From the IMG/VR virus record IMGVR_UViG_3300025072_000003: DNA of 39,853 bases, one strand, 5' to 3'. Below, piece after piece: positions 10,454-39,352 of this stretch. Under the pieces are notes generated by a model. That model was not told where the DNA came from. It worked only from the letters and a program-made list of their open reading frames with translations, and did no database searches. The position numbers and the translations under genes were made by a program. This stretch comes from an uncultured virus (IMG/VR IMGVR_UViG_3300025072_000003). Lineage: Duplodnaviria; Heunggongvirae; Uroviricota; Caudoviricetes. The first letter of the stretch is position 1. The number at the start of each line of letters is the position of its first letter.

Positions 10454-10574
10454 AATCAAAGGGCTGGATTTGAACCAGCGATAGTTTTTCCCGATATTTG
10501 GGCTGCGCTGTGAAGCGTCGGGAACTCTTGCCTCCTATCGTGATCCCAGTCAACTGGGTGGCACACCTTTGATT
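10454..10574 (-). ncRNA. Non-canonical tRNA-like structured RNA
   Basis: AATCAAAGG/CCTTTGATT closing stem and perfect T arm GCTGG-TTCAAAT-CCAGC. Internal helices CCCAG/CTGGG, GATAG/CTATC and TTCCCGA/TCGGGAA. No standard anticodon loop. Confidence 0.6.
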
Positions 10575-10578
10575 TAGC

Positions 10579-10731
10579 TTACTGACGCAGTAAATGAGTC
10601 TTAACTATGTCCAATTGCTCCTGCATAGCCACAACAGCCTCTAAAGCGGCGTCAGGACGCACCACAACGTCTCTCAGCGAGCCGTAATGTTCTTCAAGGC
10701 AATCCATAAGCAATTGCTTAATACGCTCCTC
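10579..10731 (-). pseudogene. Orphan duplicate C-terminus of the nucleotidyltransferase
   Basis: EERIKQLLMDCLEEHYGSLRDVVVRP aligns with KKEIKELLIGCLEHHYGSLDGALVVP of ORF 11643..11978. Confidence 0.7.
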
Positions 10732-11683
10732 ACGCAGCTTGTAGACGCTTTCTGTAATCTCTAATGGTTCTTGCACACCTAGTCCATCCAAAATTTCTTT
10801 CATCATTGGACATTGCTTCAATACATGATCCAATTGATTTGAAATTCTCTATGTTTTTGACATATTCAATTTCCCACTCTTGCATATTTGGCGATTTGAA
10901 TTTTAGATCCTTCATCAAATCAAACCTGTGCTTTTTGTATTCAATGCAATAACCTTTGTTGTTGTCATAAAGTCTCTCTAAAAAACACTTTCCAGATAAA
11001 CCAACCATTACAACACTGTGAAAATCGCCCTTTACCTCATGACCATAAATCAAACTAATGCTGTCCAAGTAGGACATAATCCATTTTGCCAACAACCCCC
11101 CACCAGTACCTATAGACACCTTCCATTGATTTATGCTTCTATTTAGTGAAATGCTGCCATCGCCATCAAAAAACCCCAACAAAAAAGACTCAAAAAACTT
11201 ACGTTTTATTTTTGGCGCACTTAAAATATTAGACTTTTTAGGAACGCATCCAAGGTTTATAAGATCATTTGCAAGACTTTTGTTGCATAAACTGACAACA
11301 TATCCGATTCTCCCATCTTCCCTAACATTTTCCCTAATCATTGTCAATGGTGCATCAACAAAATTGCAAAACTCAACCAAAGCTTCCCTAACATCATTTG
11401 ATAAATTAACTATACTTCTGTTTTTGGTGGTTTTGCATACGCACCCATCAGCAAACATAAATCCCAACCAATAGGCTGACTCATCATCAATTTCGCGAAA
11501 ACAATCAATCTTATAACCATTTCGTGGAACACTCACTTTCTTAAAAAATGGTATTCCTAATTTGATCCTTCTTCTACGAACTCTTCCATAAGATTCGCCA
11601 CATATTTTAGCCAACTCTGTGTCTGATATTTTTCCCAGTAAATCATTGTACTCCCACTCTATCAAGAATCCTCCTAATTTCAA
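10730..11683 (-). mobile_element. Free-standing LAGLIDADG homing endonuclease
   Basis: Two motifs, AYWLGFMFADGCV and FLLGFFDGDGSI, plus an N-terminal HTH-like segment (SDTELAKICGES). Confidence 0.88.
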
Positions 11684-12171
11684 TTAAAGAATTTTTATAT
11701 ACTTCTGGGACTACCAACGCCCCATCCAAAGACCCGTAATGATGCTCCAAACATCCAATCAACAGTTCTTTTATCTCTTTTTTCCTTGGAACATCTGGCA
11801 ATTTGCTTTTCTCGTACAATCGTTCCAATGATTTCTCTTTGTCTGTAGCCCAACTTCTTATTTCCTTTTCAGACATTTCTCCTCGTCTTATGGACTTGAG
11901 CAATTCATCTTTGAAATCGAAAGTCAGTTTTCCAAAAGACCCGTTCTCTCCCTCTACAACAACATCTGTTTCCCACATGCGACAAATGCAAAACGCACTC
12001 TTGAGGAGTGTATAATGTATCTATGACTGCGGGATTGTTTTCCATGGCTAAATGGAAAAATTTAACAATATTAAAAATCTGGAAATCATATTCTTTTCCA
12101 CGATAATCAACATGATGTTGTTGCCACTGTTGAAAAGGCTTTTTAGGATAATCAAATCCAAAAACTTTCAT
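11643..12171 (-). pseudogene. Fragmented pol-beta-type nucleotidyltransferase (RlaP/YcgL-like)
   Basis: The middle segment FQQWQQHHV...IVKFFHLAMENNPAVIDTL and the C-terminal LKSIRRGE...CLEHHYGSL are in different frames. The catalytic N-terminus and the intervening region appear to be missing. Confidence 0.65.
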
Positions 12172-12499
12172 AAGCAAAAAGTGTTTTGCTCGCTTCCGAG
12201 GGTACGTTTTTTCCTTTTCCCTTTCCGTTGCCCTCAAGATAACGTCCTTCAAGGCTCTTTCCTTTCTCATAGATCCATGGACAGTTCCTATTGAAAGCTG
12301 TGATATTTGATAGTTCTTTTTCGCTGCTGATTGAATAATCTTCTCCGCAGCAGTCACAAGTCACTCTGTGGGGATGATGATCGAATCGTCTTTCAAATAT
12401 CTTTATTGCTTCCTCTTCAGAAGAAGCCTGAATATAGATTTCGGACCAATCTTCTTTCTGACTACCGCCAGAATACATGTCATAAAATTTCGTCCACAT
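12152..12499 (-). CDS. Hypothetical phage protein
   Basis: 115-aa ORF with FYDMYSGG and TCDCCGEDY, abutting the helicase stop. Confidence 0.7.
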   Translation of the reverse strand: MWTKFYDMYSGGSQKEDWSEIYIQASSEEEAIKIFERRFDHHPHRVTCDCCGEDYSISSEKELSNITAFNRNCPWIYEKGKSLEGRYLEGNGKGKGKNVPSEASKTLFAYESFWI

Positions 12500-14390: not shown

Positions 14391-15166
14391 TTACCTCAGT
14401 AATTCGAATTTACCTTTATCAATCACCTGTTTCACATTGACCTTTTTACCAGTCCTATGATCCACTGCGCGAGATTGAATGAAATTGTAAGTCCTAATCT
14501 TATCACCTCTGCTACCGCCACCCAACTGCTCTTTGCGAACGTTATTTCTGGCAGCGTGTTTCTTTTCGAGATAATGTTGTTGCACTCTAGCAGTGATGAT
14601 TTCCTTTGCCTTTCGCCTATTTTTATGTTGACACTTTCCATTAATGAAAACAGAAATTTCAGTTGGCAAATGCTTCATCCTTACAGCGCTGTCAGTTTTG
14701 TTTTGGTGCTGGCCACCACACCCGTGCCCTCTTTGCGTGGTGACTTCAATATCTTTATCAGGTATTAAAGCAACGCTCTTATCGGGCATTGGAAGAACTG
14801 AGACTGATACCAAACTGGTTTGTCTGCGTCCTTTGGTTTCTGTAGGCGGGACTCTCTGACAAGCGTGCTTGCCAGATTCATTTTGAAATGCCCTACCAGC
14901 CTCTTTCCCTTTGATAGAAGCTAATACGCTGCCTTTCGAAGAATGAAGTATTTCAACTTTCAATTTCAAACTCTCTGCGTATTTGACATATGATGAAAAC
15001 AATTCGTGAACAAAGATTTTTGAATCTGCTCCACCCTCTCCGAATTGAATTTCCAATAGAACTTCTTGGGTGTTTGGGCTAAAGACAGCCTCTTTGATTC
15101 AACGCTTCGTTTTCTTTTTTTGTTGTTGTGCCATTTCTAAAGACACCTCCGTTTTGACTTCTTCAT
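14391..15166 (-). CDS. prfA: RF1-type peptide chain release factor, N-terminally short, probably recoded (two +1 frameshifts)
   Basis: PxT-type QRVPPTE, GGQHQNKTDSAVR and KIRTYNF motifs. AAGGAGGT RBS before ATG 15166. Two CTT-TAG sites at 15142-15137 and 15084-15079. Confidence 0.8.
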
Positions 15167-18300: not shown

Positions 18301-18942
18301 TTAAAGCTCTACATCCCAATAAGCGTCGGAAACAAAAGTTGCCCACTCTTTGTAGTGCTTTTTGTAAGAAATGCCATTGTTGTCATCCTTGAACAAAGAC
18401 CACTTTGGCTTGATAGGAGTCCAATTTCTGACGAAAAACGACATATTAGCTTCCTCTGGTGTGTTGTCAGCTTTGCGTGAATTACAATCAACACATGCCA
18501 AGCAGCAGTTTTCCCAAGTGGTTCCACCGCCACGAGATTGAGGCATAATGTGATCAATTGTCAACTCTTCGCTTCCAGGCTTAACACCACAGTAGCGACA
18601 AGTGTAAAGGTCACGCTTGTAAAGCTTTCTACGAGAGAAAGTCACAATATTGTAAGGAGGCTTGTCGTACCTAACCTTAATAACCTTAGGAACACAGAAC
18701 TTCCTGTGAGATGAAGACATGAAATCCTCACCTTCTTTTGGTCGCAATTGTGCCCAATCATCCCAAGTGTACATATTAAAATCAGGCTTAACACCAATGA
18801 TTTCAGCCTTTGGTGATCCGTCCTTGTAAGCTGAGAACAGCTTTGTAAGCGCACGAGCCATTGGCCAAATGTGAATTGGTTGCCAGCTTCGGTTCAAGAC
18901 CAAAACCTTCCTGTTTTCAAAATCTAATGCTTGAGTGGTCAT
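18301..18942 (-). CDS. HNH endonuclease (McrA/HNH_5 type)
   Basis: VLVLNRSW, RDLYTCRYCG, TIDHIMPQSRGG and CVDCNSRKA. Confidence 0.9.
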   Translation of the reverse strand: MTTQALDFENRKVLVLNRSWQPIHIWPMARALTKLFSAYKDGSPKAEIIGVKPDFNMYTWDDWAQLRPKEGEDFMSSSHRKFCVPKVIKVRYDKPPYNIVTFSRRKLYKRDLYTCRYCGVKPGSEELTIDHIMPQSRGGGTTWENCCLACVDCNSRKADNTPEEANMSFFVRNWTPIKPKWSLFKDDNNGISYKKHYKEWATFVSDAYWDVEL

Positions 18943-20022: not shown

Positions 20023-20508
20023 TTACTGAATTTCTTCGAATATCATCTTTTCCCAGTTTTTACGTACTTTGTTCGCTTCAAACACCTCTCCATCAATGGC
20101 AACGTATACCCCAGGAGAGGTAGCAAGTTTCGCACAAGCTATGGCAAAGCCCAGATTAAACTCAGCATCGGAAGACTTAACTGACAAAGGAACCCAAGAA
20201 CCAGTCATGACAATCACGCCAGTTTCCCTAGACGCCAAATAACGAGCCGTATGCTCCATTGTGTCCGTGCCGTGAATTATCACTATAGGTTCATCCCTTA
20301 ACTCATAAGCCTTCTCATAGAGCAACTGACGGTCCTCTACGCCAATCTCGCGGGAATCCTTCAAATAACAACGATGAACCTCAATGTTATAAGTTAAATT
20401 AAAACGCCCCTTCAAGTCCTCAAGTTTTGAATCGTCTCCAAAACCCATTGAACCTGTGAGGGGCGAATATTCCTTCAAGAATGTACCACCAGTTGTAATG
20501 ATCCTCAA
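20023..20508 (-). CDS. Asparaginase N-terminal-domain protein
   Basis: IITTGGT, IIHGTDTM, VMTG and SDAEFNLGFA. Confidence 0.88.
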   Translation of the reverse strand: MRIITTGGTFLKEYSPLTGSMGFGDDSKLEDLKGRFNLTYNIEVHRCYLKDSREIGVEDRQLLYEKAYELRDEPIVIIHGTDTMEHTARYLASRETGVIVMTGSWVPLSVKSSDAEFNLGFAIACAKLATSPGVYVAIDGEVFEANKVRKNWEKMIFEEIQ

Positions 20509-20542: not shown

Positions 20543-20938
20543 CTAATACAATTTCAATTCGCCAGTTATAACATCAATCTTATCAGGCTCATCAGGACCA
20601 ATGGCTAAGCAGGTTGGGGTTGGAACCCCATGAAACTCTGTCAAACCGCTATCAACGACCAAATGAACCTCTAAACCAGCTTCCTTGGCTTGCTTCTCAA
20701 TTTCCAAAAGATGTTCTTCCGAATCAACACGAACACACACTTTTGCAAATGAGTCTTTTAGCCATGCTTTCTCTACTTCTTTTAATTCAATTACAAAAGC
20801 GTCTTGTAGATCGCATGTTGATTCAAAATTAAACCTTCTTGTAATGAAAGCCATGGAAGCATGACTTGCTTGCGAGCACTCTTTGCCTCTTCGCATTTTT
20901 AGGTCTTTGCGAATGACAATAACTTGCTTCATTTTCAT
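20543..20938 (-). CDS. pth2: Peptidyl-tRNA hydrolase, Pth2 family
   Basis: KQVIVIRKDLKMRRGKxxSQxxHA and VVDSGLTEF...TCLAIGP...ITGELKLY. Confidence 0.93.
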   Translation of the reverse strand: MKMKQVIVIRKDLKMRRGKECSQASHASMAFITRRFNFESTCDLQDAFVIELKEVEKAWLKDSFAKVCVRVDSEEHLLEIEKQAKEAGLEVHLVVDSGLTEFHGVPTPTCLAIGPDEPDKIDVITGELKLY

Positions 20939-21738: not shown

Positions 21739-22290
21739 TTAGTTGTTGTTTGCATTTTCAACGAACTCATCTTTAATATGTGTCATTTCTTGCATAATGG
21801 AACGACCAATCTCTTCCATAAGATCTTTGTGCAAATCTTCCTTGTAATTGTAAAACACACTGTCTTTACTTGATTCCGACAAATACCAAGCACCTGAATC
21901 TAACTCTTTTTGCAACTGATTTGGCTTCCAACGAGCATAACCTAGATAAAAGCGAGAATCCATACAATCTAACTCAATTAAATTGTTCAAGCCATTAGAG
22001 ACAAGCCATATACCGTCTACCACCTTATGACATCCATCAGATAGGTCTTCTCGACAATGAAGTGCTGTGATGGGGCAAAGAACTGGACCACCAGAATGGA
22101 TAAATCCATTATTGTCAATCTTTTTGTCGAAAGCGTCTATCCATACTTCTTTCAAAGAAATTGGACCTGCTCGATTGACAACTAGCCCTATTGTTCCTTT
22201 TTTATCATCATGACTGATGATAAAAACTACCGTCTTTCTAAATGCAGGGTCTTGCAAGGTTGGATGTGATACGAGTAATTTGCCCTTCAT
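21739..22290 (-). CDS. YqgE/AlgH family protein
   Basis: GKLLVSHPxLxDPxFRKTVV, GLVVNR, GGPV and FYLGYARWxPNQLxxEL. Confidence 0.88.
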   Translation of the reverse strand: MKGKLLVSHPTLQDPAFRKTVVFIISHDDKKGTIGLVVNRAGPISLKEVWIDAFDKKIDNNGFIHSGGPVLCPITALHCREDLSDGCHKVVDGIWLVSNGLNNLIELDCMDSRFYLGYARWKPNQLQKELDSGAWYLSESSKDSVFYNYKEDLHKDLMEEIGRSIMQEMTHIKDEFVENANNN

Positions 22291-22929: not shown

Positions 22930-23012
22930 TGGAAACGGAGGGACTTGAACCCTCATCTCTCATGGTCCATTGGATTTCAACATAAGGCTCTGCCAAATTG
23001 AGCTACATTCCC
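22930..23012 (-). tRNA. tRNA-Phe (GAA)-like with 9-nt anticodon-loop insertion
   Basis: Normal acceptor, D and T arms. The stem TTATG/CATGA encloses the 16-nt loop TTGAAA[TCCAATGGA]C. Confidence 0.6.
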
Positions 23013-25961: not shown

Positions 25962-26489
25962 TTATCTTCTGTCTCTATTGTCTAAAAATTCAATGTCCAA
26001 GAGAGGCGTCTCTCCCAACTGAGCGTATTCATCGCCATCATATTCAAGCAAGCCAACATCGTTCCACTCTGTTTCAATGTTTTGCCAATCATACTTGACA
26101 TTAGGGTCTTCGGCTATTACTCTCTCATGATTTTCGATTACCTGAGTGATTAAATCACGACCGGCTGCATCGCATCGCTGTCCAAAGATTTCTTCAAAAC
26201 CACACAATGAATATCCAGTATCCATTTGCCACTTCATGTACTCTTCTATGGAAAACTCTCTCTTATACCAAGCAGAACACATAGCATTCAGATCAATATT
26301 GTAAGGGCGACGTACATGCTCTAGGTCATTACCCATCTCTCCTTCTAAAACCCAACGATTGAGACGATTCCTTTTCCATCTCCACGTTCCATTATCGTCT
26401 TCAATTACAGTGTGACGAAACATCATCGAGAGCAATTCAATATCACGCCCATAAGTCTCAGCCACGCGATCTAAATTCACAACAGTCAT
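25962..26489 (-). CDS. Hypothetical protein
   Basis: Start reassigned to MTVVNL because the upstream part overlaps a tRNA. Confidence 0.65.
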   Translation of the reverse strand: MTVVNLDRVAETYGRDIELLSMMFRHTVIEDDNGTWRWKRNRLNRWVLEGEMGNDLEHVRRPYNIDLNAMCSAWYKREFSIEEYMKWQMDTGYSLCGFEEIFGQRCDAAGRDLITQVIENHERVIAEDPNVKYDWQNIETEWNDVGLLEYDGDEYAQLGETPLLDIEFLDNRDRR

Positions 26490-26527
26490 TTTTAATCTCT
26501 GCAAAAATAAAGACAAGAAACAAAAAG

Positions 26528-26623
26528 AGGCCAGGGTGAGACTCGAACTCACGACAATCGGATTAACTTCGTAGGGCTATCTAACCCAAAGTCCGACGCT
26601 CTAACCAACTGAGCTACCTAGCC
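26528..26623 (-). tRNA. tRNA with 22-nt anticodon-loop intron-like insertion (Lys-TTT if spliced at 34/35, Asn-GTT if at 33/34)
   Basis: Intact acceptor, D and T arms. TCGGA/TCCGA encloses the 29-nt loop CTTTGGGTTAGATAGCCCTACGAAGTTAA. Confidence 0.75.
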
Positions 26624-26626
26624 AAG

Positions 26627-26697
26627 AGCGTGTGAGGAGAATCGAACTCCTGTCATCAGGATGGAAACCTGAGGTAATACCATTATACGACACACGC
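26627..26697 (-). tRNA. tRNA-Gly (TCC)
   Basis: Anticodon arm TCAGG-TTTCCAT-CCTGA. Confidence 0.92.
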
Positions 26698-26744
26698 AAA
26701 AAACTTATCGAGAGGACACCACATTCGTCATCACTCCCGACAAG

Positions 26745-26975
26745 TCAAATTCTTCCTTCTGATCTCATCTTAAATAAAACATTCCCTCTTCGCCTGCCGC
26801 CTATTATGCATACAATGTGACCTCTTGTGCAATTGTATTTGTCGGCATACTCTTGTTCTTTTCCTCTGGCGTTTAAGATTATATCTTCAACTTCCTTATC
26901 TGTAAGCTTGTCTCCTTGCCTGCGTTTCCATCCCCATTTTGGTTCTAGTTGCACAATCAAGTCCTTTCTTTTCAA
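26745..26975 (-). CDS. Small HTH-like protein
   Basis: KLTDKEVEDI...YADKYNCTRGHIVCII resembles HNH-associated HTH tails. Confidence 0.45.
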   Translation of the reverse strand: MKRKDLIVQLEPKWGWKRRQGDKLTDKEVEDIILNARGKEQEYADKYNCTRGHIVCIIGGRRRGNVLFKMRSEGRI

Positions 26976-26976
26976 G

Positions 26977-27050
26977 TAGGGCAGGGAGGAATTGAACCTC
27001 CGACCTGTCGCTTATAAGACGACCGCTTCTTACCACTGAGCTACTGCCCC
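26977..27050 (-). tRNA. tRNA-Ile (TAT)
   Basis: Anticodon arm GTCGT-CTTATAA-GCGAC; A73. Confidence 0.88.
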
Positions 27051-27442
27051 TCATCTTCTGTATATGACATCCATGTTTCTAAATACGTCCCAAATCCCTT
27101 TGGAAACTTAACTTCATTTTGTCTGAGAACATAACGAGCATGATCTCGCTCCAATGCTTCCCTCCTTGCTACCTGCCTTCTAACCACCTCTTCTGCTGCT
27201 GGTTGCACTACGACGCTTTTGTAAACGCCTCTCATTACAAACCATGGCAAAAACACAAACCAAAATAATGAAATAAAAGTCGCAACAACATAAAGCTTTA
27301 TTGCTTCACGACCCTCTCCTTCATTGAATCCCTTTGCTACATTATACGTTAAATATAACATAAACGCAAACGTAACTAAAGATCCAACAAAGTATCCTCC
27401 AACAAGAATGTTCATCAGAGACTCCATTTTATGCCTCCCCAC
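27041..27442 (-). CDS. Hypothetical membrane protein
   Basis: Two TM segments. Confidence 0.6.
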   Translation of the reverse strand: MGRHKMESLMNILVGGYFVGSLVTFAFMLYLTYNVAKGFNEGEGREAIKLYVVATFISLFWFVFLPWFVMRGVYKSVVVQPAAEEVVRRQVARREALERDHARYVLRQNEVKFPKGFGTYLETWMSYTEDEGQ

Positions 27443-28457
27443 TTCTCCTCATTCCTTCTTCCATGTCACGCAACGACATAACTGCATCAATGTGTACCAC
27501 TGCATCGTCGCCATCTAAGTCAACGACTTCTTTTTCGCCATCATCAGACTTTTTAGTCATCTGAGTCATCAAAGCTGCTGCTGTCGCCGCCCTCTCCTTC
27601 CTTCTCTGATCTTCCGCTTCCTGTCTTTTTTGCTTTTCTTCTTTTTCAAATTGAACGACTTCTTCACGCTCTTGATCAAGGAAAGACTTGATTTCCTCTT
27701 CTTCGACAAGCTCTAAAATTTCTTTATAGGACTTTAATTTGACTTCGCAATCTTTAGCAACTCTCTCAGCCTCATCTCTTCTTGACTTGATGGAGTCGGC
27801 AGCTAACACCAATTGCTTTTCTTCAGCGAATTTTATCAAAGATTCAAAACTTGTGAAATGAATAGATACACGTCCTGTTGGGTGAGATGGAATGACAACA
27901 GTTATATTGTCTGCTTCTCCATCTTCGCCAAGATATAAATAACTTTCATCATCACAATCAATAAACTTCAATGATTCGCCCATCAATGCAACTGGCTTGG
28001 TTGAGATAATTTTATCGCTTTTGACAACCCAAGAAGTCATGCCAAAAGAGTCTTCCTCTTCTACGATCTTGGCAATCAAATCAGATTCCTGCGAACCTAT
28101 TGTCTCCAGTCTTCCCTGTCGCTGTTCTTGCTCTTTCTCCAAATCAGACCTTGATTTTTGAATCGCAGCTAATTTTATCTTCAAATTCTTTACGTTTACA
28201 GGCTGTTTTACAGGCTGTTCCTCAACGACATCAACAGCCTCAACAGCTTCCGCCTCTTCTGGACCATCCATCATCTTGTTCACTGCCTCAATAGCCGTTT
28301 CTGTCATAGCTTCTTTTCTCGTTTCCGCTAATTGTTGGACCACTTTTTCAGCAGCATCTTCTTTGGCAACTCTATCATCTGATAATTTTTGCATCGCACT
28401 ATCTGCCTTCTTTTGTCTGTATTCTTCTTTTACTTTTTGCAAGTCCGCTTTGTCCAT
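27429..28457 (-). CDS. Coiled-coil protein
   Basis: E/K/A-rich. Start reassigned to MDKADL. Confidence 0.7.
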   Translation of the reverse strand: MDKADLQKVKEEYRQKKADSAMQKLSDDRVAKEDAAEKVVQQLAETRKEAMTETAIEAVNKMMDGPEEAEAVEAVDVVEEQPVKQPVNVKNLKIKLAAIQKSRSDLEKEQEQRQGRLETIGSQESDLIAKIVEEEDSFGMTSWVVKSDKIISTKPVALMGESLKFIDCDDESYLYLGEDGEADNITVVIPSHPTGRVSIHFTSFESLIKFAEEKQLVLAADSIKSRRDEAERVAKDCEVKLKSYKEILELVEEEEIKSFLDQEREEVVQFEKEEKQKRQEAEDQRRKERAATAAALMTQMTKKSDDGEKEVVDLDGDDAVVHIDAVMSLRDMEEGMRRSGEA

Positions 28458-28498
28458 AACATTTCTCCCAACAAATCTGTAAAAAGCTGTAAAAATAG

Positions 28499-28570
28499 CG
28501 ACCTTACGGAGGATCGAACTCCGATTGCCAGCTTGAAAAGCTGGAGTCCTGACCATTAGACGATAAGGCC
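28499..28570 (-). tRNA. tRNA-Glu (TTC)
   Basis: Anticodon arm CCAGC-TTTTCAA-GCTGG. Confidence 0.92.
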
Positions 28571-28627
28571 GAAACGGTCGAATGTACTACATTATACTTC
28601 AATTACATCCAACCGTAAACCAAATTC

Positions 28628-28918
28628 TCAAAAATTGCCGTAATCTTCGTAAAAATCAGACAATTGACTCTCAAAATCATCATTCGCACGCATATCGTGG
28701 TGTGAAAGATGACCAAGCAATTTGCTGCTGTGACAGATAAAACAGCGTGGTTTCCCACAATCAAATGGTTTTCTCTTGCGGAACCTGCCAACTTGCTTGT
28801 CGCAGTCAATCGCAGGATCTTCACCTCTGCCGAACTCTATGTTACTCTGAACTAGACTTCTGTGACGTTTTCGCCACTCTCTTTCGCTTCGATGATACTC
28901 CTCGTGCCATCTCTTCAT
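28628..28918 (-). CDS. Hypothetical protein with CxxxxCxxC motif
   Basis: AGGAGG RBS before MKRWHEE; DCGKPRCFICH. Confidence 0.7.
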   Translation of the reverse strand: MKRWHEEYHRSEREWRKRHRSLVQSNIEFGRGEDPAIDCDKQVGRFRKRKPFDCGKPRCFICHSSKLLGHLSHHDMRANDDFESQLSDFYEDYGNF

Positions 28919-29021
28919 AATTACCTCCTGGTGGTGGTATAGAACCAAAAATTGAAAGGCTCTCCACTAAGGTAATTGAATTAAATTTGCACATGTTATT
29001 TCTCCTGTTAATTGTTAAAAG

Positions 29022-29096
29022 TACCCCCGGTTGGAATCGAACCAACGACCTCCACTTCCGCAAAGTGGCGCTCTTAATCCCCTGAGCTACGAGGGC
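29022..29096 (-). tRNA. tRNA-Arg (GCG)
   Basis: Anticodon arm CCACT-TTGCGGA-AGTGG; body resembles the other Arg tRNAs. Confidence 0.88.
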
Positions 29097-29243
29097 GTAA
29101 TATTTTTATTTATTGTTTTCCCATACAGTTGGTTTTCACACTCTTGACAAAAAATCTCTTCCTCTCCAATAGTACCCAATCAAGGAAGCGAGCCTTGTCT
29201 TTCAGTTTCGAAGACTGACGTGCATCCATCACACTCATCGGGC

Positions 29244-29693
29244 TTATAAATAATCGTCTTCACCTTCAACTTCTTTATCAAAATTAATAAAGTCTTCCAT
29301 TTCAAAAGCGAACCCTCTTATAACAGGGGACACCTCCTCTATGTTCATTTGACCTTCTTCAAACTTCCAAATTGGAACAAAACCAGATTTTTCTAAGTGG
29401 CTACGAAGCTCTTGGTATATCTCCCTTTCGGTGCAAGCCATATCATCTATTTTTGATTTAGCAGATCTTACGGCTTTCCCAAAATCACTTAAACTCTTTC
29501 CGACTGCCAAATACCATTGGTCGTCAATGCCTTCGTCATCTTTTATTGATAAATTAAACGTTCTTAGACCGCTTTCATTCATCGCCAAACATACTTCACA
29601 TTCACAATTTGAAGGGTGCTTTATTGGTTCCATAACTCTTTCCTTAAAAACGGGTCTTAGTATGTTGCAATCGTATACCAAAACACGCTTCAA
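29244..29693 (-). CDS. Hypothetical protein
   Basis: ORF of about 130-149 aa with HPSNCECEVC. Confidence 0.6.
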   Translation of the reverse strand: MKRVLVYDCNILRPVFKERVMEPIKHPSNCECEVCLAMNESGLRTFNLSIKDDEGIDDQWYLAVGKSLSDFGKAVRSAKSKIDDMACTEREIYQELRSHLEKSGFVPIWKFEEGQMNIEEVSPVIRGFAFEMEDFINFDKEVEGEDDYL

Positions 29694-29694
29694 A

Positions 29695-30093
29695 TCAAGG
29701 CTTCTTTACCTTTTTGAGTTTTGTCAACTCTCGTCTATATTCTTTTGGCAAGTGTTCTCGTTCAAGGATCTCTGGATCAAATTGCGTCCAAGACTCACGC
29801 ACTTGCTTACACCTTACCCTCCTAAGCTCTTTCCCATCCAGCCAAATACACTCGAAAAGACCCGTCTTGTAGTTGTAGCTGGGAATCTGTGAACTTTTGT
29901 TTAATATCCTCCATGCTCTAACTTGGTAGCGATTTGATGCAAATGACCAGTCATAAAAGATTACTTGACTAAATACAAGCTTTGCATTATCGTCATAAAA
30001 ATGGTTGACTTCTATCAACTCAACTGTATCTTCTAGAACGACTGCTTCATTTTGTTTTAACGCAAAAAAGAAAAAAAGGAATAGTGCTGCCAT
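29695..30093 (-). CDS. Secreted hypothetical protein resembling a planctomycete conserved family
   Basis: Signal-peptide-like start. The IEVNHFYDD...QVIFYDW...RESWTQFDPEILERExLP similarity is recalled, not searched. Confidence 0.6.
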   Translation of the reverse strand: MAALFLFFFFALKQNEAVVLEDTVELIEVNHFYDDNAKLVFSQVIFYDWSFASNRYQVRAWRILNKSSQIPSYNYKTGLFECIWLDGKELRRVRCKQVRESWTQFDPEILEREHLPKEYRRELTKLKKVKKP

Positions 30094-30162
30094 GCGCGTT
30101 TATCCTATGTTAATGGTATATTAGAATCATATACCAAAACAAACTTCAAAGCAACACCTAAG

Positions 30163-30246
30163 CACTCACCTGGGGAATCGAACCCTAACCATCCAGACAC
30201 ACATTAAGGAACCAGTTTAGAATACTGGTGTGGCCTACAGGCGAGC
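30163..30246 (-). ncRNA. tRNA-like element with non-canonical core
   Basis: GCTCGCC/GGTGAGT acceptor-like stem and GGTTCGATTCC T loop. Internal hairpin CCAGT-ATTCTAA-ACTGG. No D arm. Confidence 0.45.
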
Positions 30247-30256
30247 AAAAATAAAG

Positions 30257-30329
30257 TATCCCCGACAGGATTCGAACCTGCAACCCACTGGGTAAAAACC
30301 AGCAACTCTACCAATTGAGTTACGGAGAC
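30257..30329 (-). tRNA. tRNA-Lys (TTT)
   Basis: Anticodon arm GCTGG-TTTTTAC-CCAGT; A73. Confidence 0.88.
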
Positions 30330-30340
30330 AAAATGTAAAG

Positions 30341-30413
30341 TGCCCTCGGCAAGATTCGAACTTGCGACCAACCGGGTAAGAACCGGCAACTCTAGCCACT
30401 GAGTTACGAAGGC
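30341..30413 (-). tRNA. tRNA-Lys (CTT)
   Basis: Anticodon arm GCCGG-TTCTTAC-CCGGT; A73. Confidence 0.9.
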
Positions 30414-30426
30414 AAAATATTAAAAG

Positions 30427-30536
30427 TGGAATTGGTGGGGCTCGAACCCACACTTGACGCCCAGTTTTCTGGCCACATCAAGCCTTCGCCCTGCACGAAA
30501 TAAGCCAGGGTTGATTACCTGTTAATTTACAATGCC
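30427..30536 (-). ncRNA. Oversized tRNA-like element
   Basis: Acceptor-like GGCATTG/CAATTCC and T arm GTGGG-TTCGAGC-CCCAC. CCCTG/CAGGG encloses a 12-nt loop, followed by a very long variable arm. Confidence 0.5.
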
Positions 30537-30564
30537 TAAGTCGTCTGCAATCCCATGTATAAAG

Positions 30565-30640
30565 TCCTGCGAGAAGGATTTGAACCTTCGACTTCCACCT
30601 TATCAGGGTAGCACTCTAAACCAGACTGAGTTACCGCAGG
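30565..30640 (-). tRNA. tRNA-Ile (GAT)
   Basis: Anticodon arm CTACC-CTGATAA-GGTGG. Confidence 0.9.
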
Positions 30641-30647
30641 AAAGGAT

Positions 30648-30676
30648 GGCATGTGCAGGATTGTCCTGCACATGCC
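30648..30676. repeat. Perfect 13-bp inverted repeat after the RNA ligase
   Basis: GGCATGTGCAGGA-TTG-TCCTGCACATGCC. Confidence 0.8.
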
Positions 30677-30683
30677 TCTTCCA

Positions 30684-31607
30684 TTAAACATCTTGTAATG
30701 CATTCTGAAAATGCAATTTAACCAACTGTGCAGTAAGCCTTCCGATAGCTTTCTCCACAGGCTTGCTCCAAACGATTTCGCCTTCTGCTTCAATCTTAAT
30801 ATCAGCAGTCATGGCTACTTGAATTTCTCTCATCTTTTCCATGCCTGGATCTTCAATTTTCTGAAGGATGTGCGCCACTCTCATTGGCGTACACCACTCA
30901 TCGGCAATAGCTTGAGCATCGCTCAAAACCTTCAACTTCACAGGGTCGTCAATCACGCGAGGTGCTTTGGTTTCACGAAAATCATCACCTTTATGCTTAG
31001 AGATAACTCGCTTGCCATCGTTCCTTGTCAACTCAATGAGAGGACGAAGAACAACACCTTCTCGCTTATGACCTTCTCCCATTCCGTTTCTAACAGCCTG
31101 AACTGAATCACGGTCACGCTCACGATTAATGGCTTCGACTTCTGTTGGAATTAAAACGTAGTCAACAAACTCAAGTCCTAATTCCTTCACAAAATCATCA
31201 GCCTGCGGAACAGACAGCCACATGCCATTAATGCAAACATCAAAAGCAGCAAACTTTAATTGCTTGCCATATGTGTGTGACATTTTCTGACAACTTCCGC
31301 CGTATGCTTCGCCGTATACAACAACGTCACACATCCCAGCAAACTTGTCTCTCAGTGTTCCCTGGTCAAAAAGTTGAACGAATTTCTGATGTGACTCTCC
31401 ACCAGAAAAGAAAATTAACATTCCTTTTCCGTCCTGAATCTTCCAAGTGATGTGAGATGAAGTCCCATGAAGCTTTTCGAGTGCGTAGCACTCACGAAAC
31501 AACATGATGTTCTGATCTTTGTACAGGTTGTTTATCTTTAGATACCCGATGATACACCTACCTTTCCTTCCACCTTTTAGCCAAATCCTTACCTGGACTG
31601 GTTTCAT
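30684..31607 (-). CDS. ATP-dependent RNA ligase (Rnl2-like)
   Basis: Nucleotidyltransferase motifs I (EKLHGTS), III (VYGEAYG), IIIa (FAAFDV), IV (REGVVLRP) and V (ISKHK). The start is uncertain. Confidence 0.85.
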   Translation of the reverse strand: MKPVQVRIWLKGGRKGRCIIGYLKINNLYKDQNIMLFRECYALEKLHGTSSHITWKIQDGKGMLIFFSGGESHQKFVQLFDQGTLRDKFAGMCDVVVYGEAYGGSCQKMSHTYGKQLKFAAFDVCINGMWLSVPQADDFVKELGLEFVDYVLIPTEVEAINRERDRDSVQAVRNGMGEGHKREGVVLRPLIELTRNDGKRVISKHKGDDFRETKAPRVIDDPVKLKVLSDAQAIADEWCTPMRVAHILQKIEDPGMEKMREIQVAMTADIKIEAEGEIVWSKPVEKAIGRLTAQLVKLHFQNALQDV

Positions 31608-31863
31608 TTTTTAATTTAAGTTCACGTTTCTTACAATCGTTTGCCCAGTCTGCCGTTTCAGCAGATTCTAGAGCATCCAAGTTCTTCCTACGCAGAAGAA
31701 CGTCTTTAATTGTCTTACCTTTACCGCCACTATTGGGGCGTTTTAATTTTACTTTCTTTTTATTTTTCTTTTCAACAGGAGCATTCATTCTCTGACGCCA
31801 CTCTTCCATTTCAGCAGCAGTCTCGAATCCTCTTGTTTCACCATTCATTGTTAATTCAAACAT
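31558..31863 (-). CDS. Hypothetical protein
   Basis: GAGGT RBS; 101-aa basic ORF. Confidence 0.65.
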   Translation of the reverse strand: MFELTMNGETRGFETAAEMEEWRQRMNAPVEKKNKKKVKLKRPNSGGKGKTIKDVLLRRKNLDALESAETADWANDCKKRELKLKNETSPGKDLAKRWKER

Positions 31864-31894
31864 TATTACCTCTACCTTATTGGTAAAGCCTTAG

Positions 31895-31988
31895 GGCCAG
31901 TGGAGGGACTTGAACCCACAACCTATGGTTTACTTTGTGGGCTATCTTGCCCGTAAAACCATTGCTCTGCCAATTGAGCTACACTGGC
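31895..31988 (-). tRNA. tRNA-Thr with 21-nt anticodon-loop intron-like insertion (TGT if spliced at 34/35)
   Basis: Thr-type body GCCAGTG/CACTGGC. ATGGT/ACCAT encloses the 28-nt loop TTTACGGGCAAGATAGCCCACAAAGTAA. Confidence 0.78.
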
Positions 31989-32159
31989 TTAACTTAGGGA
32001 TAGATATTTTGTATTATAAGTCTATCCCCCCAAACTTCCATTTCATAAATTCTAAGCCACTTTCGTTCTGATTGTTTAATTTCATCATAACACTTTTCCA
32101 ATGTATCATGACAAGTCTGTGGTGGCTTTTCGTACTGAACAACAAACATAAATCATTCC

Positions 32160-32696: not shown

Positions 32697-32809
32697 CTTT
32701 AAGCCTTTCTAAAAATAAATATTATGATGGACTTGCTGTGCTATCTCCAATGCTTCAACTTGGCACACACAACTAGGCATAAGTAGCTTTAACTGTCCCA
32801 TCCATCAAG

Positions 32810-32882
32810 AGCTATCGGAGGGAATCGAACCCGTCATAGTCCTCTTTACAAGAGAGGTGCATTCCAATCTAGCCACAATAGC
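32810..32882 (-). tRNA. tRNA-Thr (TGT)
   Basis: Anticodon arm CCTCT-CTTGTAA-AGAGG. Confidence 0.85.
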
Positions 32883-33110
32883 TTAATCAACGATCAGATA
32901 TACTCCCAACTCATATCCCATACGTTCTTCGTGTACAATTTCTCCACTTTCAATAAGTGAATTAATTGCGTCCCATGCCTTTACTCCATACCTCTTATGC
33001 ATCTGCGCAGCCAGCAATCTTTTTCCAATAAGACCGTCACTGTCTTTTATCAAATCCAAAACTCCATGTTCAACATGCCTTTTTGACTGACATCTGCGAC
33101 TATCCATCAT
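32883..33110 (-). CDS. Small hypothetical protein (possibly winged helix)
   Basis: 75-aa ORF with AINSLIESGEI. Confidence 0.55.
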   Translation of the reverse strand: MMDSRRCQSKRHVEHGVLDLIKDSDGLIGKRLLAAQMHKRYGVKAWDAINSLIESGEIVHEERMGYELGVYLIVD

Positions 33111-33525
33111 TGTCTCTCCTGTAAGTTGCTTGAGAATTCGTTATCTGACAATTCTTGTTATTTCCGATTGTTATGTGATATTTCTTGTTATCGTTCCTTC
33201 GATACCTGGACAAACCAAGTTCTTCTCGAATATCCCCGATTCTATCACAATCAACGTCAAGAAAGAAGTATTTTCCATCAAATTTTACAACATTGCTGTA
33301 TTGGAAGACAATTTCTTCTCCACTGTGCTTTCCCCAGTGTTCCATTGCAATGTTTTGTTGTTCCAGTCCTGTTCTAACAACAGTAATGTGAGCATCGTAC
33401 ATCTGAGGCTGTGGATAGTGGTATTTTGGTATCATACTGCGGTAGAAATCAGAAATGCCTTTGTCTACCCATATCACCACTCTTAGCCCTGGTCCGTATT
33501 CTAAAGTTCCTTTAGATTCAAACAT
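33100..33525 (-). CDS. 2H phosphoesterase family protein
   Basis: Two HxT motifs (AHITVV, YHITIG) about 70 aa apart. Confidence 0.75.
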   Translation of the reverse strand: MFESKGTLEYGPGLRVVIWVDKGISDFYRSMIPKYHYPQPQMYDAHITVVRTGLEQQNIAMEHWGKHSGEEIVFQYSNVVKFDGKYFFLDVDCDRIGDIREELGLSRYRRNDNKKYHITIGNNKNCQITNSQATYRRDNDG

Positions 33526-33535
33526 ATCAATAAAG

Positions 33536-33620
33536 AGGCTAGGGTGGGATTCGAACCCACGGTGTGATTAAATCAGCGAGTTTTGCAGACTCGCGCCTTC
33601 GTCCGCTTGGCTACCTAGCC
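33536..33620 (-). tRNA. tRNA-Cys (GCA) with long variable arm
   Basis: Anticodon arm CGAGT-CTGCAAA-ACTCG; U73; 16-nt variable region with a TGAT/ATCA stem. Confidence 0.85.
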
Positions 33621-36421: not shown

Positions 36422-37247
36422 TGGTGGGCTGAGATTATACCCTCCAGTGAAGCGTCTTTAGTTTCCGTACCTACTTCTTTGCGGAAGTCGTTAAAAACTT
36501 ATCCACTACCCTATGGTAGTATCGCTTCATAGCTGCCTTGTTTTAGAAGGTGGCGGTTCCTTCATAATATTCAACTACTCAACCACTTCGATTAAGCCAA
36601 CCTTGCGGGCTGCTCGGTAGTGCTAACCACCTACTCGCTCTCCGTAATTAACAACCTTAGCCTTGCGAGCTTCAGTTGTCGGCATTGCCCCGAAGGACTG
36701 CCGATTTAAGCTATTTTCGTCAAACACAAGATCAGACTTTTGCTTGTTAAACAAAGTTAGGATTCGCACCTAATCTTCTGATTCCTAAAATCAGCGCTCT
36801 ACTATTGAGCCACATTGTGGTTGGCGAACGATGTGCTGATCTTGCGGCTTTTATTCCTTTTGAGAATAAAAATACCACACACCACTCTGTACAAAATCTA
36901 GTTGATTTTTAATACGGTTTTTCTAGCAAGTGTGGAACCCCGAAAGGTTTCCCCACTTTCTCTATCAAACTATCGTTAAGCATTTAGGCACTACCCCTCA
37001 CACAAAACAACTACTGTTCCTCTCTCGCTAGTAATCAGTTCACTCGATAAGTTGGAGCACGACACCCACAACAATCAGAACCCTCACCGTTGGCCTAGAT
37101 TCTGGTTTCTCGACTGATTTTCCAGTTATCACCCGTTTCAGGATGACAAGGAAAGGTCAGCTTGCATAAATGGACTCTTGCGAGCGATAAGTTGCCAAAC
37201 TCACCTTTAGGGATGTTACCATCCTTACCCTATGACGTTATGCCGCC
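36422..37247 (-). ncRNA. Large structured ncRNA, GOLLD-like
   Basis: About 825 nt without a credible ORF, with many helices capped by GCAA and UUCG tetraloops on the minus strand. The 3' end reads AAAGACGCT...TAATCTCAGCC. It lies directly behind a tRNA in a phage tRNA array. Confidence 0.72.
36749..36819 (-). tRNA. Degenerate tRNA-like element embedded in the GOLLD-like RNA
   Basis: D arm GCTC/GAGC, anticodon arm CTGAT-TTTAGGA-ATCAG and T arm TTAGG-TGCGAAT-CCTAA. The acceptor stem is mismatched. Confidence 0.55.
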
Positions 37248-37790: not shown

Positions 37791-37840
37791 TCGGGGTGAA
37801 AGGATTTGAACCTTCGACTGCCAGACTGCGCTACACCCCG
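37791..37840 (-). ncRNA. Anticodon-less tRNA-Pro-like remnant (50 nt)
   Basis: CGGGGTG-TAGCGCAGTCTGGCAGTC-GAAGG-TTCAAAT-CCTTT-CACCCCG-A. Confidence 0.7.
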
Positions 37841-38028: not shown

Positions 38029-38069
38029 AGCCTTCGGTGAGAATTGAACTCACGCTGAGCTACGAAGGC
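38029..38069 (-). ncRNA. Anticodon-less tRNA remnant (41 nt)
   Basis: GCCTTCG-TAGCTCAGC-GTGAG-TTCAATT-CTCAC-CGAAGGC-T. Confidence 0.7.
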
Positions 38070-38650: not shown

Positions 38651-39352
38651 TTATTTTAACCACTTTCTTATTGCATTATCAGAAACTCTATACTTTCTTC
38701 CTGTTGCGCTATATCCTAATTTTTCAACATCCATCAACAACACTTCTTTATCTGGTCTGTTGTCTATTTTGTTTTTTTGCATTTTCTTACCAGCGCAACT
38801 TTTGCAACGATTTGCTTTATTTGAAATACTTTTACCACAATCTACACAATTTTTTATACTTGTTTTATTTTTTTTAATTACATTCTTTTTTCCACAAAAA
38901 GTATCCTGCTGGCTATTGCAATTTGGACATAACAATCTCAAATTAACAATTCTGTTATCATCATTGATCCCATTTATATGATCTAAGACCATAACTAATT
39001 TTTCATTATTCCAAAAATTATCCAATCCACAAAGACAACACTTGTTTTCCAATATCCCACCATCAATCAATCTTTTTTTTAAGTGTCCTCTGGCGTATCT
39101 ACTTCCTCTTACAGTCACTTCTTCCAGTGGTATTTTTTTCTTGAATCCGCCTTTCCCAAAATTTAGTGTAAATTTGGAAAAATCAATGTTTTCATCTTTA
39201 AGCCTCTTAGTTAAAGTTCTATGATTTCCACCACCATTATTAAGTCCAAAAAAATCCAACACTTGCCTCATTGTATCCGACTCTTTCACCAATTCTTCAA
39301 GTTTGTCTTTCGGAAGTTTCCAAATTGGACTTCTGTTTTTTCGTTTATCCAT
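38651..39352 (-). mobile_element. HNH homing endonuclease inside the tRNA array
   Basis: CCLCG...LDHINGINDDNRIVNLRLLCPNCNSQ, a C-terminal Zn ribbon and an HTH (VSDNAIRKW). Confidence 0.88.

Follow-up and report, generated by a model that had tools for sequence, protein, structure and literature searches.

The stretch of DNA analyzed here, referred to below as the window, comprises 39,853 nucleotides of the uncultured virus record IMGVR_UViG_3300025072_000003 (Caudoviricetes). It has a G+C content of 38.5% and looks like a portion of a large uncultured marine phage genome. From about 19 kb to its end, the window carries an array of tRNA genes together with a GOLLD RNA, entirely on the minus strand; ARAGORN counted 29 tRNAs in this array, and Rfam likewise gave 29 matches. 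An initial annotation of the window had reported that two tRNA genes carry short inserts in their anticodon loops and that the inserts have a hairpin motif in common. Both genes were borne out, on the minus strand, with the following features.

26528..26623, minus strand: interrupted tRNA 1, 96 nt (Rfam RF00005, 60.9 bits)
26567..26588, minus strand: insert 1, 22 nt, in the register between tRNA positions 34 and 35 (34/35); may slide by 1 nt, or lie at 33/34 if the tRNA is tRNA-Asn
26574..26587, minus strand: shared hairpin core GGGY-WAGAUA-GCCC, copy 1, fourth pair U-G
31895..31988, minus strand: interrupted tRNA 2, 94 nt, with a Thr(UGU) body (Rfam RF00005, 58.2 bits)
31934..31954, minus strand: insert 2, 21 nt, between U34 and G35, with no sliding
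31939..31952, minus strand: shared hairpin core GGGY-WAGAUA-GCCC, copy 2, fourth pair C-G

At these scores both genes are members of RF00005 (cut-off 29 bits), and both fall in the upper half of the array's tRNAs, whose scores range from 30.7 to 75.5 bits. The two cloverleaves are complete, and the acceptor, D, and T arms of tRNA 1 are canonical. The anticodon stems, TCGGA/TCCGA in tRNA 1 and ATGGT/ACCAT in tRNA 2, enclose loops of 29 and 28 nt as encoded, and a 7-nt loop is obtained only after removal of 22 and 21 nt, respectively. The predicted excision would leave both tRNAs with a 7-nt loop having U33 and A37. When all registers were enumerated, removal at 34/35 gave Lys(UUU) and Thr(UGU), and removal at 33/34 gave Asn(GUU) and Thr(AGU), which reproduces the identities that had first been assigned to the two registers. 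Given the isolated genes, ARAGORN in intron mode called tRNA 1 as Lys(ttt), with an intron of 22 nt, and tRNA 2 as Thr(tgt), with one of 21 nt; run on the whole window, it labeled the two genes inconsistently (Gln/Val and Gln/Arg).

With their high scores and the array's own CU trailer, the two genes do not look decayed. This trailer appears in the DNA as CT, not CCA, directly 3' of the discriminator base in 28 of the 30 Rfam tRNA matches between 19008 and 39730 (minus strand), and it is common to both interrupted genes; possible explanations for it are a signal for 3'-end processing specific to the phage and an encoded C74. A tRNA-like segment embedded in the GOLLD RNA (36749-36819) is among the two matches that are without it.

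In contigs from four marine metagenome runs, belonging to four studies, the DNA of both genes is covered with neither differences nor gaps (0 of each), and none of the contigs of these runs lacked an insert or joined across it. The identical DNA in contigs of four studies shows that the inserts are not an assembly artefact and are real and stable at the DNA level. The stretch from 26400 to 32100 was found in thirteen marine metagenome runs from ten studies.

The shared motif held up on comparison of the two inserts, which align with 16 of 20 bases identical, a local alignment score equaled by 1 of 20,000 shuffles. Each contains GGG-NN-AGATAGCCC and then AC-N-AA; 12 of the 14 hairpin bases are identical, and the flanks differ. 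The window has exactly two copies of the sequence GGGNNAGATAGCCC, and these loops contain them both; the core was found nowhere else in the window on either strand. Counting pattern matches in the window with 2 mismatches permitted is a weak control, at least 2 matches being obtained in 21 of 100 shuffles. There is no target duplication or terminal repeat at the inserts, and no donor copy was found elsewhere in the window. The likeness of the insert to its own D arm was not significant for tRNA 1 (328 of 5,000 shuffles), and there was no likeness for tRNA 2. As would be the case for a mobile intron, the near-identical inserts reside in tRNAs of different identity (Thr versus Lys or Asn). The presence of the same sequence of about 20 nt at the same loop spot of two different tRNAs is the strongest single piece of evidence and argues for a targeted process rather than chance insertion.

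The exact point of insertion could be examined with uninterrupted relatives of tRNA 2, for which IMG/VR was scanned with the anticodon-arm frame of this tRNA, 1-31 bases being permitted in the middle. Fifteen phage tRNAs share the frame, and each has 2 middle bases: TG in 12 (Thr, TGT) and CC in 3 (Arg, CCT). Several of the 12 Thr(TGT) relatives also have the GCC... acceptor start and the D arm of tRNA 2. The same anticodon arm is present in Thr(tgt) tRNAs of GTDB, and the C discriminator of tRNA 2 is also found in a Thr(tgt) tRNA beside the RNA ligase gene of a relative. The predicted excision from tRNA 2 would produce exactly the loop of the 12 uninterrupted relatives. Because these 12 Thr(UGU) tRNAs have the same arm, gene 2 reads as a tRNA-Thr(UGU) with 21 nt between U34 and G35. 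By sequence comparison, then, the insertion point is fixed at U34/G35 for the Thr gene, an addition to the initial annotation.

Interrupted tRNA 1 is probably a tRNA-Lys(UUU) with its insert at 34/35, judging from related genes; tRNA-Asn(GUU) with the insert at 33/34 is a less likely alternative. Among 44 GTDB tRNAs with the D and T arms of tRNA 1, 27 are tRNA-Lys, many of them near-identical Patescibacteria genes, and 4 are tRNA-Asn, all from one genome. An exact-frame search of IMG/VR for relatives of tRNA 1 gave 0 matches; a looser frame gave 3, one of them a tRNA, which is a Lys(ttt) with the same anticodon stem. The top two-piece phage BLAST match of tRNA 1 is a tRNA-Asn, and the most even end-to-end alignment of the inserts places insert 1 at 33/34, the register that gives Asn(GUU). 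On an IMG/VR contig (L269, positions 35-121), a phage tRNA whose anticodon is UUU combines a long variable arm with the anticodon stem of tRNA 1. In the window itself, an 85-nt tRNA with a GCA (Cys) anticodon and a long class II-like variable arm (33536-33620, minus strand) nearly matches interrupted tRNA 1 in its first 11 bases and acceptor stem.

In the predicted folds, each insert forms a hairpin in which a 4-bp GGGY/GCCC stem carries the 6-nt loop WAGAUA, and the sole difference in this stem, U-G versus C-G, retains pairing. In tRNA 1, the end of the insert and loop bases 32-35 form a CUUU/GAAG helix with pair probabilities of 0.93-0.98. This helix and the hairpin both stand at pair probabilities of 0.9 or more, and the fold has UAC and UUAA bulges, both on the 3' strand. 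In the favored fold of the Thr tRNA, G35-U36 are paired with the two bases that begin the insert (0.9); the UUU/AAA helix of this tRNA is 2.7 kcal/mol worse than the favored fold and 0.8 kcal/mol better than no helix. The initial annotation had described a compensatory pairing between the insert end and the loop. In both genes, loop bases 32-34 are indeed complementary to the final 3 bases of the insert, and the pairing is folded in tRNA 1, but the predicted Thr fold does not use it. Since the Thr fold bypasses the UUU/AAA helix, the compensatory change comes down to one column, and the claim is weakened. That the inserts are too short to self-splice agrees with what we found: they are 21-22 nt long, neither has a group I ribozyme core, and no Rfam intron or ribozyme family matched them at the gathering threshold or at E values up to 1.

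The genes surrounding the interrupted tRNAs include uninterrupted Lys(UUU) and Thr(UGU) genes, which had been said to lie nearby and were both located, and genes for two enzymes of the RNA-repair type.

30256..30329, minus strand: uninterrupted tRNA-Lys(UUU) (ARAGORN; Rfam, 63.5 bits)
32809..32882, minus strand: uninterrupted, divergent tRNA-Thr(UGU) (ARAGORN; Rfam, 39 bits)
30684..31607, minus strand: Rnl2-like ATP-dependent RNA ligase (Pfam PF09414, E 2e-12; phrog_548, E 8e-23)
33100..33525, minus strand: small 2H-type phosphoesterase with two H-x-T motifs (HIT, HIT) (phrog_12204, E 3e-16)

Read along the minus strand, the order is the class-II-like GCA tRNA, the 2H phosphoesterase, a 75-aa open reading frame (ORF), the uninterrupted Thr(UGU), a NADAR/YbiA-like gene, the interrupted Thr gene, a 101-aa basic ORF, the Rnl2-like ligase, Ile(GAU), a 128-nt tRNA-shaped RNA, and Lys(CUU) with Lys(UUU). 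The ligase gene thus lies 288 nt downstream of the interrupted Thr gene on the same strand. The match of its product to the phrog_548 "RNA ligase" family covers the full length of the protein, which fell below the cut-off of TIGR02307 (Rnl2) and gave a weak match to the T4 Rnl2 structure 2hvq. The 2H protein scored 25.2 bits against Pfam PF22547, below the cut-off of 27. An RNA ligase is expected of protein-spliced introns, and the window does encode an Rnl2-like one, whose action on these RNAs is putative. The ligase would be the candidate enzyme for sealing the exons on either side of the inserts, and the 2H phosphoesterase the candidate for healing 2',3'-cyclic phosphate ends. The gene cluster corresponds to the RNA-repair set described for jumbo phages in the relevant passages of PMC7824862. 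Such a neighborhood fits a heal-and-seal step and is not specific to one.

Ligases 48-54% identical to that of the window are found in two relatives, G001 (28 tRNAs) and LR745208.1 (485 kb, 36 tRNAs). Their long tRNAs were considered as interrupted genes and ruled out, being ordinary Leu/Ser types or tRNAs with long variable arms. The ligase is absent from the five phages whose uninterrupted Thr tRNAs were the closest. In a relative (L118, 13762-14109), a tmRNA lies downstream of the ligase. Just downstream of the ligase in the window is the 128-nt tRNA-shaped RNA (30427-30554, minus strand), which has an acceptor stem, a T arm, and a CU-type trailer, and in which a large structured domain replaces the D and anticodon arms. 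Across 38 window ORFs, the commonest codon is AAA (62.9 per 1000), and ACA is the top Thr codon (16.8 per 1000).

The window holds further unusual tRNA-like RNAs and other genes, the main ones being as follows.

22930..23012, minus strand: third tRNA with an enlarged anticodon loop, 16 nt (Rfam, 47.5 bits; ARAGORN; fold)
36426..36887, minus strand: GOLLD RNA, full-length (206 bits)
First 9.5 kb of the window: block of sugar-modification genes
10730..11683: LAGLIDADG gene (Pfam/PHROGs)
18301..18942 and 38651..39352: HNH genes, on either side of the tRNA array (Pfam/PHROGs)

The extra segment of the third tRNA is 9 nt long and unrelated in sequence to the two inserts; the tRNA would be Phe(GAA) if the segment is removed after the anticodon, or Pro(GGG) if it is removed at 34/35. 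A 118-nt cloverleaf-like RNA at 10455-10572 (minus strand) has a D-loop hairpin, and its "anticodon" stem, GAUAG/CUAUC, encloses about 50 nt; the RNA is without a variable loop and was rejected as an interrupted tRNA. At 38030-38069 (minus strand) there is a tRNA minihelix, made up of acceptor stem and T arm only with a CU trailer, and at 37791-37840 (minus strand) a partial Rfam tRNA match; both may be deletion remnants or minihelix RNAs. A tRNA-like RNA at 30164-30246 (minus strand), missed by ARAGORN and Rfam, has UCU in a 7-nt loop, together with a long extra arm and a D arm that is poorly formed.

Following the sugar-modification block are genes for a helicase, a shortened RF1-like release factor, PTH2, an AlgH-like protein, and HNH and LAGLIDADG nucleases. 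Genes of the translation-rescue type, all on the minus strand, lie at 14391-15056, 20543-20938, 21739-22290, and 20023-20508; the set consists of an RF1-like protein without the N-terminal third, PTH2, an AlgH/YqgE-like protein, and an asparaginase/GatD-like N-terminal domain. At 10730-12357 (minus strand), two ORFs match opposite ends of a phage nucleotidyltransferase (phrog_388) and adjoin a LAGLIDADG-domain ORF. The pair may represent a split or invaded gene for an enzyme of the CCA-adding type.

We put at roughly 0.4 the probability that both inserts are copies of a single small mobile, protein-spliced element resembling a tRNA intron, which has spread among tRNA genes of this phage that are otherwise unrelated. 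A known process that would explain a shared insert is the spread of introns between archaeal tRNA genes, as recounted in the pertinent section of PMC4090602. The intact bodies, the CU trailer, the exact restoration of the Thr loop, and the preference for AAA and ACA codons all fit working genes. In such a scheme, the genes would be transcribed with the tRNA array, and the ends of the transcripts would be trimmed like those of the other tRNAs. Each insert would then fold into its hairpin, extending the anticodon arm, and an endonuclease would cut at both ends of the insert; in the Thr tRNA the cuts would fall after U34 and before N35, and in the other tRNA at that position or the adjacent one. 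This putative enzyme could be encoded outside the window or by the host and would read the hairpin instead of a bulge-helix-bulge. The resulting ends, healed if needed by the 2H phosphoesterase, would be sealed by the adjacent Rnl2-like ligase to give tRNA-Thr(UGU) and tRNA-Lys(UUU), which would decode the Thr and Lys codons most frequent in the phage. A possible benefit is a store of tRNA that host anticodon nucleases could not cut until it was spliced. Taken to its full extent, the proposal is of a bacterial phage with its own protein-based tRNA splicing, in which a mobile 34/35 intron is read through its hairpin and joined by the Rnl2-like ligase, the two genes serving as a nuclease-proof store of Lys(UUU) and Thr(UGU); this fuller version is speculative, and we think it unlikely as a whole.

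A number of results weigh against splicing by such an element. The motif was sought in IMG/VR and in metagenome contigs, neither of which includes the window's own DNA. The pattern AGATAGCCC(N)ACNAAG occurs at at least 117 IMG/VR loci, with no tRNA within 120 nt among those listed, and a stricter 18-base pattern occurs at 1 IMG/VR locus and 22 in metagenome contigs, with no tRNAs. The initial annotation had suggested looking for the motif in tRNA loops of related phages; among the matches listed in both collections, no other tRNA carries it. Neither tRNA gave a BLAST match spanning its insert among 50,697 phage records, from which the window is likewise absent, and a long match to a cyanophage "tRNA-Ile" was ruled out as an interrupted tRNA, having a long variable arm instead of a loop insert. 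Within the collections scanned, the motif thus appears private to this phage. None of the 15 IMG/VR tRNAs with the Thr frame has an insert, nor do the tRNAs of G001 and LR745208.1 have inserts in their anticodon loops. As the same ligase family occurs in these insert-free relatives, the adjacency of the ligase is weak evidence, and Rnl2-type ligases, exemplified by T4 Rnl2, seal nicks in duplexes, not open anticodon loops.

Nor did the window reveal the remainder of a splicing pathway. Among its 56 ORFs, no endonuclease candidate, kinase, or Tpt1 was found with Pfam, PHROGs, and NCBIfam. No Pfam match to the EndA/Sen family was obtained with the 56 ORFs at E values up to 0.01 or with the 15 uncharacterized ORFs at E values up to 5, the window being part of a genome. 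For the ORF downstream of tRNA 1, ESM Atlas gave nothing usable as a nuclease candidate. A bulge-helix-bulge, judged by a central helix of 4/4 together with both flanking helices in each register, was absent in all 8 registers per gene, in agreement with the earlier statement that the inserts form no canonical motif of this kind, and no one structural rule places both cut sites in both predicted folds. The existence of uninterrupted Lys(UUU) and Thr(UGU) genes means that splicing is not required for decoding. All sampled copies of the locus are identical and therefore carry no covariation information, and none of the 13 marine runs listed as containing the locus is an RNA run. Of the protein-spliced intron class originally put forward, what stands is that the tRNAs are real, that related inserts lie within their anticodons, and that the 34/35 position is fixed for Thr; an endonuclease candidate in the window and conservation of the motif in the collections scanned do not.

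Alternatively, the genes might encode tRNA-shaped carrier RNAs that are never spliced and that present the hairpin, or a blocked anticodon arm, to a partner. They might inhibit, or act as decoys for, a host anticodon nuclease or a defense protein that binds tRNA, or might provide a phage protein with a binding site; this takes in the decoy idea of the initial annotation, which pointed to tRNA-Lys(UUU) as the PrrC target. In these carriers the tRNA body would serve for correct end processing and stability. We regard this as possible, though on the unlikely side. The hairpin is the best-conserved part of the inserts, with differing flanks, and the window has other tRNA-shaped RNAs whose non-tRNA modules mean that they cannot simply be interrupted tRNAs (10455-10572 and 30427-30554), as well as the minihelix at 38030-38069; working Lys(UUU) and Thr(UGU) genes alongside, and the failure to find a splicing enzyme among the window ORFs, are also in keeping with carriers. 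However, the same insert at the same position in two tRNAs would go unexplained unless an intron-like insertion process exists, and the loop halves are kept such that removal yields perfect loops. No partner or complementary target came to light either, the core being found nowhere else in the window and the pairing of the loops with GOLLD RNA being no better than that of shuffles (52 and 100 of 300).

We consider it improbable that the genes have simply been inactivated, a short sequence having been copied into the two loops, by template switching or repair for example, too recently for decay. The privacy of the motif, the uninterrupted relatives and Thr-frame tRNAs, the redundancy with intact isoacceptors, and the identity of the sampled copies, which may reflect a recent event, can all be reconciled with dead genes. 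Yet without targeting it is very unlikely that the same 21-22 nt would be inserted twice, independently, at one loop position; the window offers no target duplication, terminal repeat, or donor copy; and 4 of the 20 aligned positions, as well as the flanks, already differ between the copies, while the tRNA bodies remain canonical. A site acting at the DNA level, for protein binding or for immunity to a nuclease, for instance by breaking the target of one of the window's homing-type HNH or LAGLIDADG endonucleases, seems very improbable indeed. HNH genes do flank the tRNA array, and a LAGLIDADG gene is present at 10730-11683, but nothing links these nucleases to the insert sites, two unusable tRNAs would remain, and the best-kept feature of the inserts is an RNA-type hairpin with a G-U pair.

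A small mobile, protein-spliced element would stand apart from the tRNA introns described so far. Protein-dependent tRNA splicing is held to be archaeal and eukaryotic, and bacterial tRNA introns are self-splicing ribozymes; we know of no bacterial or phage enzyme that removes such inserts. The group I intron of tRNA-Leu(UAA) sits at 34/35, and the group I introns of tRNAs are ribozymes, some two hundred nt long, that splice themselves. The inserts resemble these introns in interrupting the anticodon region of a bacterial-type tRNA and differ from them in being 21-22 nt long with no Rfam intron match. Group I introns occur in the anticodon loops of bacterial and plastid tRNAs, according to the account of them in PMC4090602. 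Archaeal protein-spliced introns are similar in being short, in occurring also at non-canonical positions, and in the near-identical copies found in differing tRNAs, termed "intron transposition" in the part of that article on Thermoproteales (PMC4090602). As set out there, archaeal introns need a bulge-helix-bulge and an EndA-family endonuclease and then a ligase (PMC4090602); here the window yielded neither the motif nor an EndA match, and, unlike in the archaeal systems, the host is presumably bacterial. Nucleomorph tRNA introns, of 3-24 nt, are excised as judged by RT-PCR, by a mechanism given as unknown in the section of PMC4090602 that treats them. They are akin to the inserts in size and in their non-canonical positions and differ in belonging to eukaryotic nuclear remnants that have a splicing endonuclease.

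Phages are known to repair tRNAs cut by anticodon nucleases, T4 Pnkp and Rnl1 acting against PrrC, and jumbo phages have RNA repair sets, as treated in the relevant part of PMC7824862. The likeness lies in RNA ligase and 2H genes among the tRNAs and in cutting and joining in the anticodon loop, with tRNA-Lys(UUU) as the classic target; the difference is that repair rejoins a cut loop, removal of an encoded insert not being known. "Enigmatic" tRNA introns have already been published for Lak megaphages (Devoto et al. 2019, PMC6784885). As described in the tRNA portion of that report, the Lak introns likewise are inserts in the anticodon loops of phage tRNAs, invariant across samples, without known splicing machinery, and present in a large, tRNA-rich phage (PMC6784885). 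They are 23-141 nt long and mostly 79 nt or more, against 21-22 nt here, and as given in the same portion they are eukaryote-setting predictions near 37/38, one with a nested tRNA-like fold, against 34/35 here (PMC6784885). Among the 14 ranges with coordinates in Table S6 of that study, 12 are of 76-141 nt, one is of 52 nt, and one is of 23 nt. One motif is present in two different tRNAs here, and its AGATAGCCC core has 0 occurrences in the Lak supplement. The inserts described here are new relative to the Lak kind in being very short, inside the anticodon, common to two tRNAs, and ligase-adjacent. In the open-access full-text literature, we found nothing besides Devoto et al. 2019 on short phage tRNA introns and nothing on the removal of inserts from phage tRNAs.

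The locus offers sharp handles in the exact insertion point at U34/G35, the 14-nt hairpin common to two tRNAs, and the adjacent candidate ligase. If the inserts are not spliced, they would be natural tRNA-scaffolded hairpins, possibly decoys against anticodon nucleases, which would also be new. If they are spliced, bacterial viruses would hold a third route of tRNA splicing, the inserts would provide a natural substrate for Rnl2-type phage ligases, and the two genes would make a small, tractable model for the "enigmatic" introns of megaphages.

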